Virus record (IMG/VR): IMGVR_UViG_3300045988_120652
DNA from: a virus
DNA: 64,000 nt
Direction: 5' to 3' (one strand)
A model generated the notes under the pieces. It was given only the letters and a program-made list of their open reading frames with translations. It did not search any database and was not told the DNA's origin. A program made the translations under genes and the position numbers. This document shows, piece by piece, positions 5,180 to 64,000 of the stretch. How positions within the stretch are numbered: position 1 is the stretch's first letter; each line of letters starts with the position of its first letter.

Positions 5180-5425
5180 ATGAAAAACCAGAAATTCGAG
5201 ATTCGTATTGCCGTAGGTGGCGATGACGAGAAATTAGGAGTGAACGTGGAAGTATGGAAAGACGGAAAATTCTCTGACTTCAGATTGCTTGATGGCGACA
5301 ACCTGCGACTCGCATACGAGGCTTCTAAGTATGCGACGGGGATCATTGCACGACTCTACCTTGAGCACCTGCACGAGGAGGGGCAACTTGATGACGAGCA
5401 ATACAAGAAGCTCCATACGAAATAA
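5180..5425 (+). CDS. hypothetical protein (81 aa)
   Basis: ATG ORF, no motif recognised. Confidence 0.5.
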   Translation: MKNQKFEIRIAVGGDDEKLGVNVEVWKDGKFSDFRLLDGDNLRLAYEASKYATGIIARLYLEHLHEEGQLDDEQYKKLHTK

Positions 5426-5469
5426 TATATCGCACAGTTTTTATTAACAATTTAAAACTTTATAGAATT

Positions 5470-5697
5470 ATGGCAGAAACAGAGAAATTTACAAAGAGTC
5501 AGATTGCAACATTGAAGCACATCCAGAAGAAAGGTTTTGCGGGTTATCGACGTGTAGACGGAAAGCCAGCGTGTCCGGAACTGGAGGAACTCGTGGAAGC
5601 AGGGTATCTTGAGAAGTGGTTTCAGAGCATGTTCGGTGAGGACGTGTACAAGCTGACGGAGAAGGGCGAAAACCTGGTAAGGTCGCTTGTAGGATAA
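5470..5697 (+). CDS. small hypothetical protein, possibly winged-helix-like (75 aa)
   Basis: ATG ORF. The ELVEAGYLEK..YKLTEKG pattern resembles a wHTH recognition helix plus wing. This is weak evidence. Confidence 0.4.
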   Translation: MAETEKFTKSQIATLKHIQKKGFAGYRRVDGKPACPELEELVEAGYLEKWFQSMFGEDVYKLTEKGENLVRSLVG

Positions 5698-5799
5698 AAT
5701 CCGGTAAAACGGTTGAATCCGATGTTAAAGAAATATCGGGTTCATCCGTTTCTTCTGATGACTGGCGTGTGGACATAACTGTAAATGACGAATGGGAAT

Positions 5800-6190
5800 A
5801 GGTTTATACTTTCGTACTAAGATATTTTCTTATTTAAGTACTTTTATACTTCCGTATTTTCATATATACCTATGTACGTTTATACGTAAGTACTAACGTA
5901 TTTATCTACTTATTTATATATTTACTTATTTATGTTTTTATTTATCTACATAGATAGGTAAGTAAGTAGATAGATACATTGATAATTATTTACGTAGATA
6001 GATAAATATTTAGGCTGAAAAGTTTGGATATATGAATTATAATTCTTAAATTTGCAACGTGATACAAAGATACTCACGTATTTACGTATTCATATACGTT
6101 CGTACTTTTATACGTTCGTAGGTTCGTGGATATTTAGATATGTTCGTACTTATGTATTTAGATAGATATTATTAACATTTAAATACTTAA
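5800..6190. promoter_or_regulatory. AT-rich repeat field upstream of parA: candidate centromere/operator
   Basis: Recurring TATACGT(T/A)(C/A)GTA(C/G) (5878, 6094, 6110, 6137) and (G/T)TAGATAGATA (about 5966, 5994, 6158) flank the parA promoter. No ORF is present. Confidence 0.45.
6023..6054 (+). promoter_or_regulatory. parA promoter (-33 TTTG, -7 TAAATTTG)
   Basis: TTTG at 6023-6026 and TAAATTTG at 6047-6054, 21 nt apart. The 25-nt block 6035-6059 recurs at 44936-44960. Confidence 0.55.
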
Positions 6191-6195
6191 AGAAT

Positions 6196-7038
6196 ATGGA
6201 AAGACTCAGAGAAGTTCTCGCCATTGTGAATGACAAAGGCGGAGTAGGTAAGAGCACAACAGCTCACAACTTGGCTTGCGGATTGATCAAGCTGAACCCA
6301 GAAACAAGAGTATTGATTGTAGACCTCGACGCTCAGGTGGCCAACGTGTCGTTGCTGTGCGGTTGGCGTGATCGTCAGGACAAGCACGGCACAATGTACG
6401 AAGCCTTGGTAGACAAGACTGCGATGCCTGTGTACCAGGTGAGCATTGACAAGCAGGACTATCACGGCAACCTGTTTATCGCTCCCTCATCTGAAGACAT
6501 GCTAAACGTGGAGCCATTTCTGCTGCGCGAGTTAAACCCATTGAAAGTGCTGTGTAAGTTGTTCGCATTGCCCGTAATGCTTCCAGAAGACAAGGGTGGC
6601 AAGCAGAGTGTGATAGAAGCCTTCGACTATATCATCATCGACTGCCCTCCAGCCATGAACCTTGTCACGAAGAACGCCATGTCGGTGGCGACAGGCATCA
6701 TCATTCCCATGCAGCTTGAGGCACTGCCAACATTTGGCTCGTCGAGCGTGATACACTGGGCAAAGGAAGTGAGAAACGAGATAAACCCCCACCTTGAGCT
6801 TCGCGGACTACTGAAGGTGATGGTTGACAAGCGCACAAAGGCAAGCGTGGGTTTCTCGAAACATATTGACGAGGAATACGGCAGTTATGTGTTCAAGACA
6901 GAGATACCGCGTCGCACAAAGATCGTGGAAGCCCAGGCGATGATGCAGGACATCTTCACTTATGCTCCTGACTGTGACGCAGCCCAGAGCTATGAGGCGT
7001 TTGCAAAAGAGATAGTTGACACATTCAAGAATCAATAA
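6196..7038 (+). CDS. parA: ParA/Soj-family partition ATPase
   Basis: Deviant Walker A VNDKGGVGKSTT. Also LIVDLD and IIIDCPP (Walker B-like). The length (280 aa) is typical. Confidence 0.9.
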   Translation: MERLREVLAIVNDKGGVGKSTTAHNLACGLIKLNPETRVLIVDLDAQVANVSLLCGWRDRQDKHGTMYEALVDKTAMPVYQVSIDKQDYHGNLFIAPSSEDMLNVEPFLLRELNPLKVLCKLFALPVMLPEDKGGKQSVIEAFDYIIIDCPPAMNLVTKNAMSVATGIIIPMQLEALPTFGSSSVIHWAKEVRNEINPHLELRGLLKVMVDKRTKASVGFSKHIDEEYGSYVFKTEIPRRTKIVEAQAMMQDIFTYAPDCDAAQSYEAFAKEIVDTFKNQ

Positions 7039-7050
7039 AAAGAGATAACA

Positions 7051-7473
7051 ATGGGATTTAATTGGAACGATTCGCCAGTGAAAAAAGTGGCAGAAGATAT
7101 AAGGGACAACGGCGAAGCCCCCCTTTTGACACAGAGCACACAGCAAGAGGAATCTTCTGCTGTTGTGCCCGAGTCTGAAAAAGAAACAACAACTGAACCT
7201 ACGAATGAGGCGGCAGTTGACAATAAAGAGAATGAAGCATCAGAGAATAAAGCTAAAAACACCTCGACACAAGCAGCCAAAGGGCGTAATCATAGAAGAA
7301 CTCTGACAGACACCTCATTTGCTGCAAAGGGGAAAAAGACTGAGAACGGCATCGTTGTAAACGTGCCTATGGAGGATTATATGCAGTTGACAATGATGAA
7401 ATTTCAGACTGGGCGCACGTTGAAGGACCTCGCTTTACAAGCAATACATGAGTTTATAGAGCGAAACAAGTAA
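7051..7473 (+). CDS. ParG-like centromere-binding protein (disordered N-terminus, C-terminal RHH)
   Basis: Sits immediately downstream of parA. The C-terminus VVNVPMEDYMQLTMMKFQTGRTLKDLALQAIHEFIERNK fits an RHH pattern, as in type Ib partition systems. Confidence 0.55.
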   Translation: MGFNWNDSPVKKVAEDIRDNGEAPLLTQSTQQEESSAVVPESEKETTTEPTNEAAVDNKENEASENKAKNTSTQAAKGRNHRRTLTDTSFAAKGKKTENGIVVNVPMEDYMQLTMMKFQTGRTLKDLALQAIHEFIERNK

Positions 7474-54719: not shown

Positions 54720-55646
54720 ATGGAACTAAGACATTTGCGTTCGTTTGTAAACGTAGCTGAAACCAAGTTATTTAGTATGGCAGCCACACGTTGTTGCGTT
54801 ACCCAGTCGGCGGTAAGCCAGCACATTCGTGCCCTGGAGGACGAGTTGGGCTGCAAATTGCTTATCCGCACATCACACGGCATTATGCTCACCGAAAGCG
54901 GCGAAGCCCTGTTGCCTCGTGCAAAAGAAATACTGAAACAGACCGAGGACTGCAAAGAGCAAATCTATGCCCTCAACAACTGCATGACGGGCGAACTGCG
55001 TATAGGCGTAGGCTCGTTTATATCTCCATACATCCGCATGGCAGCATTGATATTCATGGAGAGATATCCAAACGTCCGTATCAATGCCGACTTCACCAAA
55101 GCCTACCTTCTCAACCAATCACTAAGGGCGCACATGTTAGACCTCGCCTTCACCATGAACATGGCATACAGCCACGAAGGTATAGAGACTATACCCTGCA
55201 TACCTTTTAACGTATATGCCATCATGCGCGACACCCATCCGCTTGCCTCGCTCTCAAAGGTGTCGTATGAGGACATTCTGAAGCACCCAATCATCATGCC
55301 CGACATAGGCGAACGTGCCATTGAGACTTTTCATCAATACATACAGCGCGACCTATATAAGCTCAACATTAAGTGCATCATCAGCGACCCCGACGAAGCC
55401 CTTGCCTCGGTGGAAGAAACCAAGTATATAACCTTCATGCCTAAGCTCTACCTGCGCAACCACCCTACCCTTGTGGCGCGTCCCATCGTCGGACTCGAAC
55501 AGCAGTTGATGAGCAACGCCCACTGTATGCAGGACGTACCTAAGAAGCGAGCTGCACAACTCTTCCTCGACATCATCCGCGACGAGGTAGTGCCATACAT
55601 TTCCGTAGCCGAAGAGTCGCAAGGGAAGTTCACACCGCCACCTTGA
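54720..55646 (+). CDS. LysR-family transcriptional regulator
   Basis: MELRHLRSFVNVAETKLFSMAATRCCVTQSAVSQHIRALEDELGCKLL is a canonical LysR HTH. The 308-aa length includes a substrate-binding domain. Confidence 0.9.
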   Translation: MELRHLRSFVNVAETKLFSMAATRCCVTQSAVSQHIRALEDELGCKLLIRTSHGIMLTESGEALLPRAKEILKQTEDCKEQIYALNNCMTGELRIGVGSFISPYIRMAALIFMERYPNVRINADFTKAYLLNQSLRAHMLDLAFTMNMAYSHEGIETIPCIPFNVYAIMRDTHPLASLSKVSYEDILKHPIIMPDIGERAIETFHQYIQRDLYKLNIKCIISDPDEALASVEETKYITFMPKLYLRNHPTLVARPIVGLEQQLMSNAHCMQDVPKKRAAQLFLDIIRDEVVPYISVAEESQGKFTPPP

Positions 55647-60587: not shown

Positions 60588-61026
60588 AATAGGCGACATT
60601 GTGCAGATAAACAAAGACTGCATGTTTCCGAAAGACACGTTGTGCATCGTTACCGAAATCCATCCCGACCGACAGTATGAAGACAAGAAGGGAGTTGTCA
60701 GTCTGAAGGCTGTCAACGACGACGATGACGGACCATGGGGGGCTTGGTGCTGTAATATTGAAGGCGTGCCCGTCACGCCCGAAATACTTCGCAATAATGA
60801 CTTTAAGGAAGAGGTCGAGGGCAAGTACTTCACAAGACCAATTAAAGCCAGATTTGGCAGTTCCCTTGCCAGATATTTGGTTGTAGAACGGAAAAAATAC
60901 GCTTGGGCAATATTCATAAAGTATTACAACGTGACAGGCTTTGCACTCTTATGTCATATAAAGTACGTTCACGAACTACAGCTCGTCCTCAAGATAATGA
61001 AATTTAGTCCGGAAATTAAAGTATAG
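60565..61026 (+). CDS. hypothetical protein (153 aa)
   Basis: Start set at MIYAEDLRIGD, overlapping the previous gene by 23 nt. Confidence 0.5.
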   Translation: MIYAEDLRIGDIVQINKDCMFPKDTLCIVTEIHPDRQYEDKKGVVSLKAVNDDDDGPWGAWCCNIEGVPVTPEILRNNDFKEEVEGKYFTRPIKARFGSSLARYLVVERKKYAWAIFIKYYNVTGFALLCHIKYVHELQLVLKIMKFSPEIKV

Positions 61027-61030
61027 CTCT

Positions 61031-61137
61031 ATGAAAGCAAAAAACAAGGTGCTGCTTGACAGAAACGAGAGTTCTCGCCCGCCCTTCTAGCCACCGACTA
61101 CAAATGCCTACACTGTATAATGATTGAATATGATTAA
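61031..61137 (+). other. degenerate TRD-like module 1 (frame-broken)
   Basis: ATG 61031 gives MKAKNKVLLDRNESSRPPF then a stop. The -1 frame reads EFSPALLATDYKCLHCIMIEYD then a stop. About 90% DNA identity to 62428-62495. Confidence 0.4.
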
Positions 61138-61264
61138 GCAGCATCCATTCGACGATTTTCATCAGCGCATCTATTGGAGCGGAACCTGTATAGGAACCGT
61201 AACTCAACAATGGGGTAATCCTGCGCCTCGTCACGGATGGAGATTAATGATTGAATATGACTGA
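61130..61264 (+). CDS. TRD-like mini-cistron 2 (44 aa)
   Basis: MIKQHPFDDFHQRIYWSGTCIGTVTQQWGNPAPRHGWRLMIEYD. The ATG overlaps the previous stop and the ORF ends in the conserved junction. Confidence 0.4.
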   Translation: MIKQHPFDDFHQRIYWSGTCIGTVTQQWGNPAPRHGWRLMIEYD

Positions 61265-61574
61265 CCCTCACTACAAACGCGGCACCATCCGCAAGGATGG
61301 CAAGCTGTATGGCCGCTATCCCGACGGATCGCTCTACCGCATCTACTCCTCCACCGACCTACCTTTCCTACAGTTGGTGGACCGAGCGGGCGAGACGTTC
61401 CTACGCATACGCCAAGCCACCGAGCTGGGCTACACCGACTGTCCCTGCCCTGGAGCCGCCGACCTAAGTTATCCGTCCTCGGCTCTGAGGCGTAGTCGCA
61501 CAGTCGGGAGGGGTAAGCTCGTAAACGCTCTGACCGCTGCAAGTGGCGGAATTTGCGTGTTTGTTGAATTATAA
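61257..61574 (+). CDS. TRD-like cistron 3 (105 aa)
   Basis: ..RIRQATELGYTDCPCPGAADLSYPSSALRRSRTVGRGKLVNALTAASGG.. resembles the post-motif-VIII region of C5-MTases (..AT..GY...GD...L..P.S..RRGRV....TLT). Confidence 0.45.
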   Translation: MTDPHYKRGTIRKDGKLYGRYPDGSLYRIYSSTDLPFLQLVDRAGETFLRIRQATELGYTDCPCPGAADLSYPSSALRRSRTVGRGKLVNALTAASGGICVFVEL

Positions 61575-61589
61575 AAGGAGAAATAAATT

Positions 61590-61961
61590 ATGATTATAAC
61601 GAATGATTGGCGGCTCTGGCTCGCATCAATGTTGTTTACGTTTGTCGTAACAATTTTGTTTATGGCTTACATTTGGTGGACAGAGCGAAAGCTAAAGAAA
61701 GAGATAAAAAATGATAGAGAAATAGACTATCAGAATTGTGATGGGTATTTCTTGTGTGTGTTTACCAAAGGTGGTGGATGCGATTTGCACAGAGCCTCGG
61801 ATGTCAAGCAGGTTGTTTCGTCTGTAAATAAAGATTACATCAACGTAATAATGACAGATGGTGAAGTAACGCATTATGAAGATGTCGTATCGTATGAGTT
61901 CAAACACGTTTTAGATTTGTCCTTGTATAATTTGAATACAGTAAAAAGAGTAGCTGAATAG
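61590..61961 (+). CDS. hypothetical membrane protein (123 aa), AT-rich insert
   Basis: N-terminal TM helix (WLASMLFTFVVTILFMAYIWW). Composition is visibly more AT-rich than the flanks. Confidence 0.5.
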   Translation: MIITNDWRLWLASMLFTFVVTILFMAYIWWTERKLKKEIKNDREIDYQNCDGYFLCVFTKGGGCDLHRASDVKQVVSSVNKDYINVIMTDGEVTHYEDVVSYEFKHVLDLSLYNLNTVKRVAE

Positions 61962-61990
61962 GCTTGTAGAACATTTAACTAATAAAATTT

Positions 61991-62362
61991 ATGAAAAGAG
62001 AAAAACGACTGCCCGATGTGCTGTTAATGTCGGCTAAAGCATCCACCTTAATGTCAAACTCAACCAAGGACGCTTGCATCTGCGTCGAGTCTGACGAACA
62101 AAGTGTAAGTTTTAAGGACGAACCGTCGGAAGGTGTAACGATGGATATTACAGCCGAGTATCGCAACATCGTTCAGTTGTGGCACCCTGCCACAGAAAAG
62201 CCTCATTGCATAGGTCAACTTCTCTGTTGGTGTTACGACAGAACATTCTTCGTACACAACCATTACAGCCATGACGATGAAAATTGGCATTTATTCATCA
62301 GCACTAACAACATAAAGCGTTATTGCTATATTTCCAATTTGGAACCCGAATGGTTTATTTGA
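61991..62362 (+). CDS. hypothetical protein (123 aa), AT-rich insert
   Basis: ATG ORF. No motif recognised. Confidence 0.5.
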   Translation: MKREKRLPDVLLMSAKASTLMSNSTKDACICVESDEQSVSFKDEPSEGVTMDITAEYRNIVQLWHPATEKPHCIGQLLCWCYDRTFFVHNHYSHDDENWHLFISTNNIKRYCYISNLEPEWFI

Positions 62363-62363
62363 G

Positions 62364-62495
62364 ATGACTGACATTAAGATATCCGTGCATCCCGTTAGCC
62401 ATCGGCTCGAATGGCGAGGATGGGGTGATTTCTCGCCCTCCCTTCGAGCCACCGACTACAAATGCCCACACTGTATAATGATTGAATATGACTAA
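62364..62495 (+). CDS. TRD-like mini-cistron 4 (43 aa)
   Basis: MTDIKISVHPVSHRLEWRGWGDFSPSLRATDYKCPHCIMIEYD. Confidence 0.4.
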   Translation: MTDIKISVHPVSHRLEWRGWGDFSPSLRATDYKCPHCIMIEYD

Positions 62496-62616
62496 TCTTG
62501 ACTTCTACCAATATCCTCGTGGCAAAAACGGGGGGGTACTAAACACTATGATTTGTCCGACCGTTACTATATCTTCATGGCAGCACAACTATTTTCTGAT
62601 TGAAGAATATGATTGA
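62488..62616 (+). CDS. TRD-like mini-cistron 5 (42 aa)
   Basis: MTNLDFYQYPRGKNGGVLNTMICPTVTISSWQHNYFLIEEYD. Confidence 0.4.
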   Translation: MTNLDFYQYPRGKNGGVLNTMICPTVTISSWQHNYFLIEEYD

Positions 62617-62749
62617 CATCCAACCCTTAAATGTCTGTATGGGAGGAATAGCAGTAACACTGAATACACGATACGAGCGACTTTGCATTGAGCATTTGAT
62701 GTCACTTGCCCACTTTCCGAGGACAGGCGTAATGATAGAATACGAATAA
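62609..62749 (+). CDS. TRD-like mini-cistron 6 (46 aa)
   Basis: MIDIQPLNVCMGGIAVTLNTRYERLCIEHLMSLAHFPRTGVMIEYE. Confidence 0.4.
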   Translation: MIDIQPLNVCMGGIAVTLNTRYERLCIEHLMSLAHFPRTGVMIEYE

Positions 62750-62759
62750 CAGTAACTAT

Positions 62760-63197
62760 ATGATCACAAAACTCAATTTCACCGACCGCACCATCAAGAG
62801 CTATGCCATCCGCAAGCTCACGCCCAAGGAGTGTTTCCGCTTGATGGGCGTTCGCGACAACGTAATCGGCACGATGCAGAGCAGCAATGCCCAGGCAGCC
62901 GAACGTCTGCCCGACTGGAAGGGCAAGGGTAAACCCGAAGACATGGCTATATCTGCATCACAGCAGTACAAGCAAGCTGGAAACAGCATCGTGGTGGACG
63001 TGTTGGCCCACATCTACGAGCAGCTTTTCTACCCCGCCCCGCCCAAGCCTCGCCCTGGCGAACAGCTCACGCTCTTCGACGACCTCGAAGACTCGCTGCC
63101 CGCTTTGCCGCCCCCCCCGCAGCCGACAAGAACGAGGAGAAGATATTCCTCACCACGTTCTCCGGCTACGACTCTCAGCTCATGGCAGCCGACGTGA
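62760..63197 (+). CDS. C5-cytosine methyltransferase C-terminal segment (motifs IX-X) plus Pro-rich linker; frame ends after a C8 tract
   Basis: IRKLTPKECFRLMGV (motif IX) and QYKQAGNSIVVDVL (motif X). After CCCCCCCC (63111-63118) the frame reads a low-complexity tail to TGA 63195-63197. Confidence 0.65.
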   Translation: MITKLNFTDRTIKSYAIRKLTPKECFRLMGVRDNVIGTMQSSNAQAAERLPDWKGKGKPEDMAISASQQYKQAGNSIVVDVLAHIYEQLFYPAPPKPRPGEQLTLFDDLEDSLPALPPPPQPTRTRRRYSSPRSPATTLSSWQPT

Positions 63198-64000
63198 TAC
63201 GCGAGTGGCATCCCGACTTCCGATGGACGTGCAAGGGATGGAGCGACATCGACAAATACGCCTGTCAGATGCACAACCTCGTCTTCCCTCAGTTTGCCGA
63301 CTGCGCCCTGGGCGACATCACCAAGATTGACTGGCACGAGGTGAAACGCTCGCTCAAAGGCCGCGAGGTTGACCTCTTCACCTATTCCTCGCCCTGCCAG
63401 GACATCAGTCAGGCTGGCAAGCAGATGGGTTTGCAGGAGGGCAGCGATACCCGAAGCGCACTGCTTTGGCGTGTGGCGGATGCCGTGGAGGTGCTTCGCC
63501 CGAAGTATCTCTTGCAGGAGAACGTGGCGGCACTGGTAAGCCAGAAGTTCATGCCCGACTTTCAGAAGTGGCTCGACAAACTCTCCTCGCTCGGCTATGT
63601 CTCTCGCTGGGCTCGTCTTAACGCCAAGAACTACGGTGTGCCGCAGAACCGCGACCGTGTGTTCTGCCTCTCCATGCGCCGTGACGTGGCCTTCGACTAT
63701 CAGTTTCCCGAACCCTTCGAGCTGCTTATCCGACTGGAGGATGTGCTCGAAGAGGAAGTGTCCGACCGCTATTTCCTCAAGGATGATGCCGTGAGCAAGT
63801 TCCTCAAGGCAAACGACTCTGACAATGCCTTATTCCTTCAATTCGACCTGCCACCGACACATGAGGCGGCAATGTTCCTCAAGACATGGCTCACGCTGCG
63901 CATGAACACTTTCAACGGATGGGAGAGGGATTTGGACGAACTGCGCGATTGCATCGAGAACGAGCGAGATGTATTAAACAGCGATTTTGCAAGTTTCAGC
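63119..64000 (+). CDS. C5-cytosine methyltransferase N-terminal catalytic region (motifs I-VIII), no own start codon, runs off the window
   Basis: KIFLTTFSGYDSQ (motif I), YSSPCQDISQAGK (IV), LLQENV (VI) and YGVPQNRDRVF (VIII). The frame is open from the C8 tract to 64000. The first in-frame ATG (63182) lies after motif I. Confidence 0.8.

Follow-up and report, generated by a model that had tools for sequence, protein, structure and literature searches.

The question raised by this locus is why a virus should carry, on one strand and in close succession, a series of very short genes, each of which resembles only one part of a cytosine-C5 DNA methyltransferase. The locus lies at the end of the window, by which the whole stretch of 64,000 nucleotides (nt) that was analysed is meant (IMG/VR virus record IMGVR_UViG_3300045988_120652; part of a 102-kb scaffold). 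A sequence-only reading had described six short frames between positions 61031 and 62749, each similar to a single target-recognition domain (TRD) and each separated from the next by a stop and a start. Three explanations were offered for them: translationally coupled specificity subunits of a split methyltransferase, cassettes switched by recombination, or a recoding event joining the modules. All six frames are present at these coordinates in the list of open reading frames (ORFs) and their translations. The answer that we propose, and regard as probable though well short of certain, is that the locus encodes a multispecific, circularly permuted and split C5-methyltransferase, with trans-acting peptide specificity subunits as its new principle. 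The array and the gene that follows it are composed as listed below, with protein lengths in amino acid residues (aa).

61031..61137, plus strand: degenerate TRD module that repeats the 62364 module (families 11/22)
61130..61264, plus strand: TRD mini-cistron of family 14, 44 aa, ..IGTVTQQWG..RLMIEYD; 8-nt overlap of its start with the stop before it
61257..61574, plus strand: TRD mini-cistron of family 2, 105 aa, ..IRQATELGY..SALRRSRTVG..NALTAASGG..FVEL
61590-61961 and 61991-62362, plus strand: two AT-rich accessory ORFs of 123 aa each, inside the array
62364..62495, plus strand: TRD mini-cistron of family 11, 43 aa, ..FSPSLRATDYKCPHCIMIEYD
62488..62616, plus strand: TRD mini-cistron of family 3, 42 aa, ..ICPTVTISSW..FLIEEYD; 8-nt overlap with the previous stop
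62609..62749, plus strand: TRD mini-cistron of family 8, 46 aa, ..IAVTLNTRYE..GVMIEYE
62760..63119, plus strand: N-terminal part of the catalytic core, with a beta-hairpin, motif IX (RKLTPKECFRLMG), motif X (GNSIVV) and a Pro-rich linker
63112..63119, plus strand: C8 homopolymer, which puts motifs I-VIII in the -1 frame
63120..64000, plus strand: continuation of the core, with motifs I (FSGYDS), IV (PCQ), VI (ENV) and VIII (QNRDR), the start of the small domain and a helical tail
64069-65961 (window-equivalent), after the core: seven intact mini-cistrons of the same design, seen in the contig L001

The array of six frames was thus described correctly in its members but not in its extent, since seven more intact mini-cistrons lie beyond the core. 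They are found in the parent contig L001, which is identical to the window over an overlap of 11,241 nt and extends 9.2 kb further downstream. Their ends are, in order, ..FVAVEL, ..AIVIYE, ..ILIEYD, ..IAICYD, ..VLIEYD, ..IVYEYE and ..ISPTLHTQGGGDREIKVLVEL, and the first two of these modules are chained by ATGA overlaps. The genome contains in total 12 intact modules of 12 different families, five upstream and seven downstream of the core, and one degenerate module. The degenerate frame at 61031-61137 has no in-frame ATG (the ATG at 61032 belongs to another frame), and a 69-nt direct repeat with 93% identity pairs 61069-61137 with 62427-62495. Because of this repeat, the first frame can be recognized as the frame-broken copy that it had been taken for, with the fourth frame, at 62364, as its source. 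It is probably a pseudo-module, dead in this genome; a 28-aa truncated homolog, family 22, is intact in seven related loci. The family 2 module (61257-61574) represents a larger TRD type and ends in VEL-TAA without overlap.

The proposed identity of each mini-cistron as one TRD is supported by comparison with single-chain enzymes. The core was used as query in an exhaustive HMMER search of 1.84 billion cluster representatives, which yielded 150 diverse relatives, and hidden Markov models (HMMs) of the module families were compared with these. Matches were obtained for 22 families, with 210 domain matches altogether. As many as 200 of them fall in the variable region, that is, in the interval from motif VIII to motif X or, for permuted proteins, ahead of motif IX; the remaining 10 are unplaced since the motif patterns failed. 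The best matches of the five intact modules in the window are as follows.

62364 module, family 11: best E=2e-16, P0267 residues 337-369 (motif IX at 377), and eight further single-chain enzymes
61257 module, family 2: best E=5e-14, variable regions of seven single-chain methyltransferases
62488 module, family 3: best E=7e-12, 11 single-chain enzymes, for example P0316 residues 319-351 (motif IX at 357)
61130 module, family 14: E=7e-11, P0292 residues 404-438 (motif IX at 445)
62609 module, family 8: E=5e-4, one weak match to a single-chain enzyme

The family 11 match ends 8 residues before motif IX of P0267. The signature of the recognition loop, (S/T)-(L/V/I)-x-(A/S/T), is likewise retained in the modules, as is the terminal strand seen in functional in-chain TRDs. 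When an artificial re-joined protein (motifs I-VIII, a family 12 module, motifs IX-X) was searched against the PDB sequences, the module stretch CRVYSAKGISPTLHTQGGG aligned with ERIYSTRGIAITLSAYGGG of M.HhaI and the alignment continued into motif IX, the stretch alone being weak (i-Evalue 75). This segment of M.HhaI, which contains Thr250-Leu251, we take to be the recognition loop. On the evidence of the profile matches, the mini-ORFs are homologs of TRDs.

Tandem homologs of the modules are found in long metagenomic single-chain enzymes of 560-780 residues (P0301, P0298, P0359, P0302, P0345 and P0380). In P0301, a protein of 777 aa, motif VIII is located at 165 and motif IX at 714. The variable regions of P0301, P0298, P0359, P0345 and P0380 span 340-550 residues and hold approximately 4 to 7 TRD homologs, counted as non-overlapping HMM matches. 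The classical Bacillus phage enzymes have three or four TRDs, fewer than the enzymes of the P0301 type. The boundaries between TRDs within the long chains (..GVMEV/IPLNTD.. and ..LVAEP/KLTIRQA..) coincide with the stop and start found here (..AIVIYE-stop/M.IPFNTE..). Because of this coincidence, the locus can be described as a multispecific methyltransferase with its TRDs cut apart at their natural boundaries.

The same arrangement is widespread. A scan of IMG/VR with a relative of the core gave 132 loci, of which 80 were taken, and together with L001 they form a set of 81. The 637 mini-ORFs in this set fall into about 31 families with at least three members, and each family occurs in no more than one copy per genome. 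Where the flanks are complete (65 loci), the median number of modules is 8 and the range is 2-15. The set of families, and partly their order, differ between genomes, and the position of a module is independent of the core: families 3, 8, 17 and 20 occur upstream of it in some genomes and downstream in others. The family 8 module, for example, is upstream in the window and downstream in other genomes (variable position: L037, L041, L067 and L072). The commonest C-terminal tripeptides of small plus-strand ORFs in the 81 loci are EYD (218), VEL (126) and EYE (104), none of which is among the most frequent on the minus strand.

The families are under purifying selection. Pairwise ratios of nonsynonymous to synonymous substitution rates (dN/dS) are approximately 0.07-0.25, with values of 0.25 or less in 24 of 26 families, and the two exceptions have only 4-5 sequences each. 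For the families of the window, the ratio is 0.11 for family 14 (found in 20 loci), 0.11 for family 2 (44 loci), 0.15 for family 11 (23 loci), 0.23 for family 3 (44 loci) and 0.15 for family 8 (25 loci). Family 12 forms 146 clusters at 90% identity in the public protein collection; the 120 matches listed are all stand-alone proteins of 47-90 aa, and those with a name are called 'hypothetical protein'. A word-indexed search with the family 12 module gave no single-chain enzyme among the matches listed. Judged by these ratios and by their distribution, the mini-ORFs are selected coding genes. In the upstream array of L029, a 40-aa ORF, MTRICISVHPVSHRLEWRGWGKLVNALTAVSGGVYVFVEL, is a chimera of two families, its N-terminal half coming from family 11 and its C-terminal end from family 2. 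Together with the natural fusion P0117 (described below) and the patterns of presence and absence, it indicates that recombination at or near the junctions has shuffled the cassettes over evolutionary time.

The catalytic core explains where the rest of the enzyme is located. It had been noted that no motif I-VIII segment precedes the array, which is true; the segment follows it, and in relatives it belongs to the same gene as motifs IX-X. The ORF immediately after the array does carry motifs IX-X, as had been supposed: 62760-63119 matches PF00145 at profile positions 270-322 (E=6.7e-8). The 63120 frame matches positions 24-216 of the same profile (E=2.8e-40), and the profile positions are therefore in swapped order, with IX-X N-terminal to I-VIII. 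All C5-methyltransferase motifs are readable in the core (FSGYDS, PCQ, ENV, QNRDR, RKLTPKE and GNSIVV), and a phmmer search gave matches to M.MpeI and M.HhaI. By motifs and fold it is a C5-methyltransferase, but one with no TRD between motifs VIII and IX of the same chain. The chain begins 16 residues before motif IX, leaving no N-terminal TRD (the Type H topology), and stops after the helical tail, with neither a TRD nor a second copy of motifs IX-X behind it; TRD-like sequence is confined to the separate mini-ORFs. The gene extends 72 nt beyond the end of the window, to L001 11313.

With one C added to the C8 run, the core is a protein of 437 aa. This repaired core was searched against a collection of 5.8 billion proteins and gave 7393 matches. 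The best 120 of the 7393 have 85-96% identity and 100% query coverage, and almost all are single ORFs of 434-449 aa; most cores in the related loci are likewise intact, with ORFs of 432-442 aa. Because the relatives are single ORFs in which I-VIII follows IX-X, the normal state of the gene is a circularly permuted C5-methyltransferase (IX-X, Pro-rich linker, I-VIII), and the enzyme is permuted rather than truncated. The Pro-rich linker replaces the ancestral gap between the C- and N-termini.

At the site of the C8 run, the relatives read CCGCCCACCGCAGCC / CCGCCCACC (CCCACC), while the window has two extra bases, and one more C restores the frame. The longest C run at this site is 3-5 in the related loci and 8 in this genome only. 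The frameshift is therefore specific to this genome, since the C runs of all other loci reach at most 5. The 63120 frame has no ATG, GTG or TTG before motif I, and the core reading frame is not intact here, a sequencing error being possible. The ENA and Logan assemblies agree on the C8 sequence, although the two are not necessarily independent. The run may have arisen by mutation or as an error of assembly, or it may be a phase-variable tract. Some other members of the phage group also have a split core: in L097 (5001-6385), and in L098 as well, an IX-X ORF of 117 aa is accompanied by an I-VIII ORF of 329 aa. The N-terminal part of this I-VIII ORF is markedly unlike the cores of the present family. 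In L095, an unrelated 185-aa ORF (5332-5889) is located between the two halves of the core; a homing endonuclease would be a guess.

Natural fusions of modules to cores show both possible points of attachment. In P0117 (491 aa, 9 member sequences), a family 7 module is fused in frame to the end of the core tail, and its contig also has a free family 17 module upstream. In P0288 and P0344, a family 16 homolog and a short linker, followed by the retained initiator Met of the core, stand before motif IX. A family 7 homolog is fused before motif IX in P0280, and two TRD-like units are found there in P0251. Both fusion points agree with the canonical order VIII-TRD-IX, and fission and fusion have occurred in both topological directions.

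A model of P0117, as a natural fusion of core and TRD, was obtained with AlphaFold2 from 89 diverse sequences and has a predicted local distance difference test score (pLDDT) of 86 and a predicted template modelling score (pTM) of 0.80, while 40 near-identical homologs had given a pLDDT of only 37.6. The predicted structure consists of a canonical catalytic domain, with N-terminal strands at residues 2-6 and 11-19 ahead of the motif IX helix and a three-helix tail at 366-438. The last residues of the fused TRD, 485-490, are also predicted to form a strand. A Foldseek search with this model places M.MpeI (E=1.3e-15), M.HhaI and M.HaeIII on top, with E-values of about 1e-15 and probability 1.0.

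The junctions between modules were compared in sequence and in geometry. The ATGAnTnA overlap of stop and start, reported for four of the five junctions, is indeed seen at 61130, 61257, 62488 and 62609. The statement that every module ends in the same 20 or so nt is correct only in part. The 19-mer AATGATTGAATATGAYTRA has three exact copies (61119, 61246 and 62477) and one copy with 3 mismatches (62731), against an expectation of 0.16 in dinucleotide shuffles, none of 100 of which reaches four; module 3, however, ends differently (..FVEL TAA, 61574) and module 5 has diverged (..LIEEYD). In 176 non-redundant E-Y-D/E junctions, the synonymous sites vary: Ile is ATA or ATT, Glu is GAA in 72% and GAG in 28%, the final Asp/Glu is GAT, GAC, GAA or GAG, and the stop may be TAA, TGA or TAG. 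The Tyr codon is TAT in 96%, because the sequence T-ATG-A holds the next start codon. The modules start with MI., MT. or MN., residues 2-3 being by-products of the overlap. Positions -20 to -3 contain almost no C. Over all modules, the 8-nt overlap accounts for 58% of the junctions and the 4-nt overlap (ATGA) for 8%, the others being mostly spacers of up to about 55 nt.

The conserved element is thus the end of a peptide (h-h-I-E-Y-D/E, a hydrophobic strand followed by Glu) with an embedded ATG, not a fixed DNA site. Since it combines a peptide end with a start codon, we read it as a signature of termination and reinitiation rather than as a DNA site or a recoding signal. The TAT bias, the C-poor positions -20 to -3 and RNA folding that does not exceed shuffles fit re-initiation. 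The chained overlaps suggest that ribosomes terminate and then re-initiate from module to module. Stop-codon reassignment was considered and rejected, as all three stops occur and each junction involves a change of frame.

These observations allow us to propose a multispecific C5-methyltransferase in separately translated pieces. One gene would supply a TRD-less permuted core, consisting of motifs IX-X, the linker, motifs I-VIII, the start of the small domain and the helical tail, while the same-strand mini-genes around it would each supply one TRD of 42-105 residues. Each free TRD peptide would dock non-covalently on the core, completing the small domain and setting the target sequence. Docking would probably involve the C-terminal strand of the peptide (h-h-I-E-Y-D/E or h-V-E-L), by beta-strand addition to the N-terminal hairpin of the core before motif IX, which is the position held covalently in single-chain enzymes. 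The peptides would compete for one site, and the population of enzyme molecules would methylate as many targets as there are peptides. Such multispecific methylation would protect the phage genome from many host restriction systems, and new specificities would be gained or lost as cassettes of 130-320 bp. That free TRD peptides, coupled in translation, serve one core in trans as its exchangeable specificity subunits seems to us rather likely. For the more specific proposal, in which a single TRD-less permuted C5 core is the docking site of peptides of 42-60 residues from some 30 families and every peptide specifies a target of its own, we consider the case evenly balanced. The variable position of the modules and the unrelated ORFs interrupting the array fit action in trans. 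Coupled, separate specificity subunits are therefore the favoured one of the three explanations first offered; we infer that the peptides are translated, that they associate physically with the core and that each brings one specificity.

Several points weigh against this proposal. Engineered pairs from M.MpeI and M.SssI, in which an IX-X-I-VIII fragment was combined with a separate TRD, gave no methylation in Escherichia coli (PMC5944983). The long helical tail, which is absent from M.MpeI and M.SssI, might make the natural split work, although this is speculation. Peptides of 42-60 residues are small for autonomous folding, and the fused TRD of P0117 was modelled at low confidence (pLDDT 37-56). 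Searches of Pfam and PHROG with single peptides gave nothing significant, the best match being phrog_8411 for module 3 (E=0.003). The locus L059 has an intact core of 437 aa (6001-7314) with no TRD mini-ORF within 6 kb on either side; its modules may lie elsewhere in the 99-kb contig or be absent. The core in the present genome is frameshifted and has no start before motif I, and the system here may be switched off, broken or mis-assembled. Finally, translation, association and activity of the peptides are deduced rather than observed, and the mode of docking is a guess.

Two of the rival explanations concern the junctions. Recoding by frameshifting, ribosome hopping or RNA-level editing would join the modules, or the modules and the core, into a single multi-TRD chain. 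Single-chain relatives with tandem TRDs do exist and have boundaries that match the junctions; if the 8-nt overlap were read through in the +1 frame, a plausible boundary (..IE/M..) would result, and the P0117 fusion indicates that covalent linkage is tolerated. However, the mini-ORFs use all three stop codons (407 TAA, 179 TGA and 51 TAG), and programmed recoding would be expected to have a uniform slippery or take-off site, a fixed geometry and a stimulatory RNA structure. Instead, no slippery sequence is seen at the junctions, overlap and spacing vary as described, and RNA folding around the five junctions of the window is no better than in shuffles (z-scores between -0.1 and +1.0). Every junction retains the ATG, with TAT in 96%; unrelated ORFs stand between modules, and the order of modules varies. 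Recoding, one of the possibilities first raised, is on these grounds quite improbable. The second possibility, that the junction repeats are recombination sites and that switching of DNA cassettes gives a phase-variable specificity, could draw on the identical direct repeats of 19-28 nt at three junctions of the window, on the different module content of different genomes, and on the L029 chimera and the P0117 fusion. Yet all cassettes are co-oriented and the repeats are direct only, with no significant inverted repeat, an arrangement that would lead to deletion and not to switching. No recombinase-type Pfam family is recorded on any gene called within 10 kb; neither the specific or inverted repeats nor the recombinase of a site-specific cassette system is found. 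The synonymous sites of the junction vary freely between families, and each module has its own start and stop, none being silent for want of an expression slot. A dedicated recombination site of 20 nt is accordingly very improbable.

The other two rivals concern the modules as such. The mini-proteins could be selected for some purpose other than that of specificity subunits of the adjacent core: as regulators or inhibitors, as partners of a host methyltransferase or of another one of the phage, or, as peptides derived from TRDs, in another anti-defence role. The failure of the engineered fragments to complement each other (PMC5944983) would be consistent with this, as would the L059 core without adjacent modules and the second methyltransferase gene (PF01555) about 8 kb downstream. 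On the other hand, in nearly all of the 81 loci the modules adjoin a core that lacks exactly this domain, natural fusions occur at both topologically correct ends of the core, and the modules retain the loop signature and terminal strand of functional in-chain TRDs. We therefore consider such a role unlikely. As to the possibility that the frames are remnants of a multispecific methyltransferase gene in decay, or that the stops are assembly errors, the broken frame at 61031-61137 and the frameshift of the core at C8 could be cited in its favour. The earlier argument that a conserved stop/restart junction speaks against decay is, however, upheld by the related genomes, in which the mini-ORFs are intact and the junction is kept at the level of the peptide. 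The same stops and starts recur in the 81 loci, which stem from many different metagenome datasets and contigs, and hundreds of protein clusters show them too; dN/dS is about 0.1-0.2 in the annotated frames. Decay or assembly error of the modules is thereby excluded, and as an account of the whole locus this explanation is scarcely credible.

The proposed split enzyme can be compared with several known systems. The size and independence of the TRDs in M.SPRI, M.phi3TI, M.rho11sI and M.H2I were reportedly worked out by Trautner and colleagues. Like these enzymes, the present system has one catalytic framework and several TRDs of about 40-60 aa, presumably with one target each, in a phage setting and with a presumed anti-restriction purpose; it has several TRD units per core, with 12 modules of 12 families in this genome and 22 families homologous to in-chain TRDs. 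The TRDs of the Bacillus phage enzymes are arrayed in one polypeptide (PMC12707154). They are consecutive between motifs VIII and IX, whereas here each TRD has its own ATG and stop, in 81 loci, the core is permuted and free of a TRD, and modules are found on both sides of it. The order IX-X before I-VIII in one chain, with the permutation point in the variable region, is shared with enzymes of the M.BssHII type, each of which has, to our knowledge, a single specificity. Natural permuted C5-methyltransferases include M.BssHII, M.Alw26I, M2.Eco31I, M.Esp3I and M2.BsaI, most of which appear to keep the TRD at the N-terminus (Type H), although the assignment to H or J is not clear-cut (PMC5944983). 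The present core differs from these: the chain is broken on the opposite flank of the TRD, giving the Type J order also seen in P0117, and the domain is fully detached; the more distant relatives P0288, P0344, P0280 and P0251 are of Type H.

Naturally split C5-methyltransferases are also known, namely M.AquI (alpha/beta) and M.EcoHK31I (PMC5944983, PMC3404938). An active enzyme assembled from separately translated polypeptides, with a split in or near the variable region, would be common to these and to the present system, in which separate ORFs under purifying selection are seen. In M.AquI and M.EcoHK31I, however, there are two fixed pieces and one specificity, with the TRD on the IX-X piece, while here the TRD alone is detached and exists in about 12 versions per genome. 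In the Type I systems, hsdM and hsdS are translationally coupled (PMC3510504). The similarity to HsdS is one of logic only, as a separate and exchangeable specificity polypeptide programs a common methyltransferase; fold and chemistry are unrelated (N6-adenine methylation, an S subunit of about 400 aa with two TRDs, an M2S1 complex). HsdS varies through inversion shufflons, of which there is no sign here. A swappable specificity subunit acting in trans is known from the Type I adenine methyltransferases; among C5 enzymes we know of none. Searches of the full-text literature, which did not extend to REBASE and most subscription journals, brought up no account of TRD mini-genes detached from their enzyme.

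If the peptides do act in trans, this would be the first C5-methyltransferase known to us with a separate, exchangeable specificity subunit of about 5 kDa. Complete separation of the DNA-reading loops from the catalytic scaffold would then be possible in this well-studied enzyme family, which the engineering of M.MpeI and M.SssI had failed to achieve (PMC5944983). It would also explain how one enzyme of gut phages faces many restriction systems, with phages trading cassettes of about 150 bp to track the restriction repertoires of their hosts. The TRD peptides, some 30 in kind and with a common docking end, would constitute a natural library and a start for programmable writers of 5-methylcytosine. 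The presence and absence of modules over about 80 variants is a natural experiment, from which recognition sequences could be assigned with metagenomic methylomes. Even without association, dozens of ORFs of about 45 residues, annotated as hypothetical or not called at all, prove to be conserved and selected homologs of TRDs.

The phage group is that of widespread human-gut phages of roughly 100 kb. In the genome collection, the nearest relatives of the core (91-93% identity) lie on L163 and L166, contigs binned as Prevotella metagenome-assembled genomes, and the host is probably Prevotella, so far as such matches can indicate. More distant core relatives (68-71%) belong to Firmicutes bins; binning of this kind may be unreliable. 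A megablast search of 60900-64000 against the INPHARED phage collection gave no match. Scans for sigma-70 promoters and terminators gave counts at shuffle expectation and are uninformative for a Bacteroidota host.

The two AT-rich ORFs inside the array (61590-62362) have a GC content of 31-47%, compared with 55-62% in the flanks. They are not TRD-like, and a Pfam scan of both gave no family above threshold; the first (61590-61961) has a hydrophobic N-terminal segment. They occur in 7 and 22 of the 81 related loci, respectively, and because of this limited occurrence they are regarded as accessory insertions. The second DNA methyltransferase gene, which belongs to another class, is located at L001 18545-19315, about 8 kb beyond the end of the window, and matches PF01555 (N6_N4_Mtase). 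Upstream, at 54720-55646 of the window (L001 1961-2887), a 308-aa ORF has precomputed Pfam matches to HTH_1 and LysR_substrate; a regulator of the LysR type would seem unusual in a phage.

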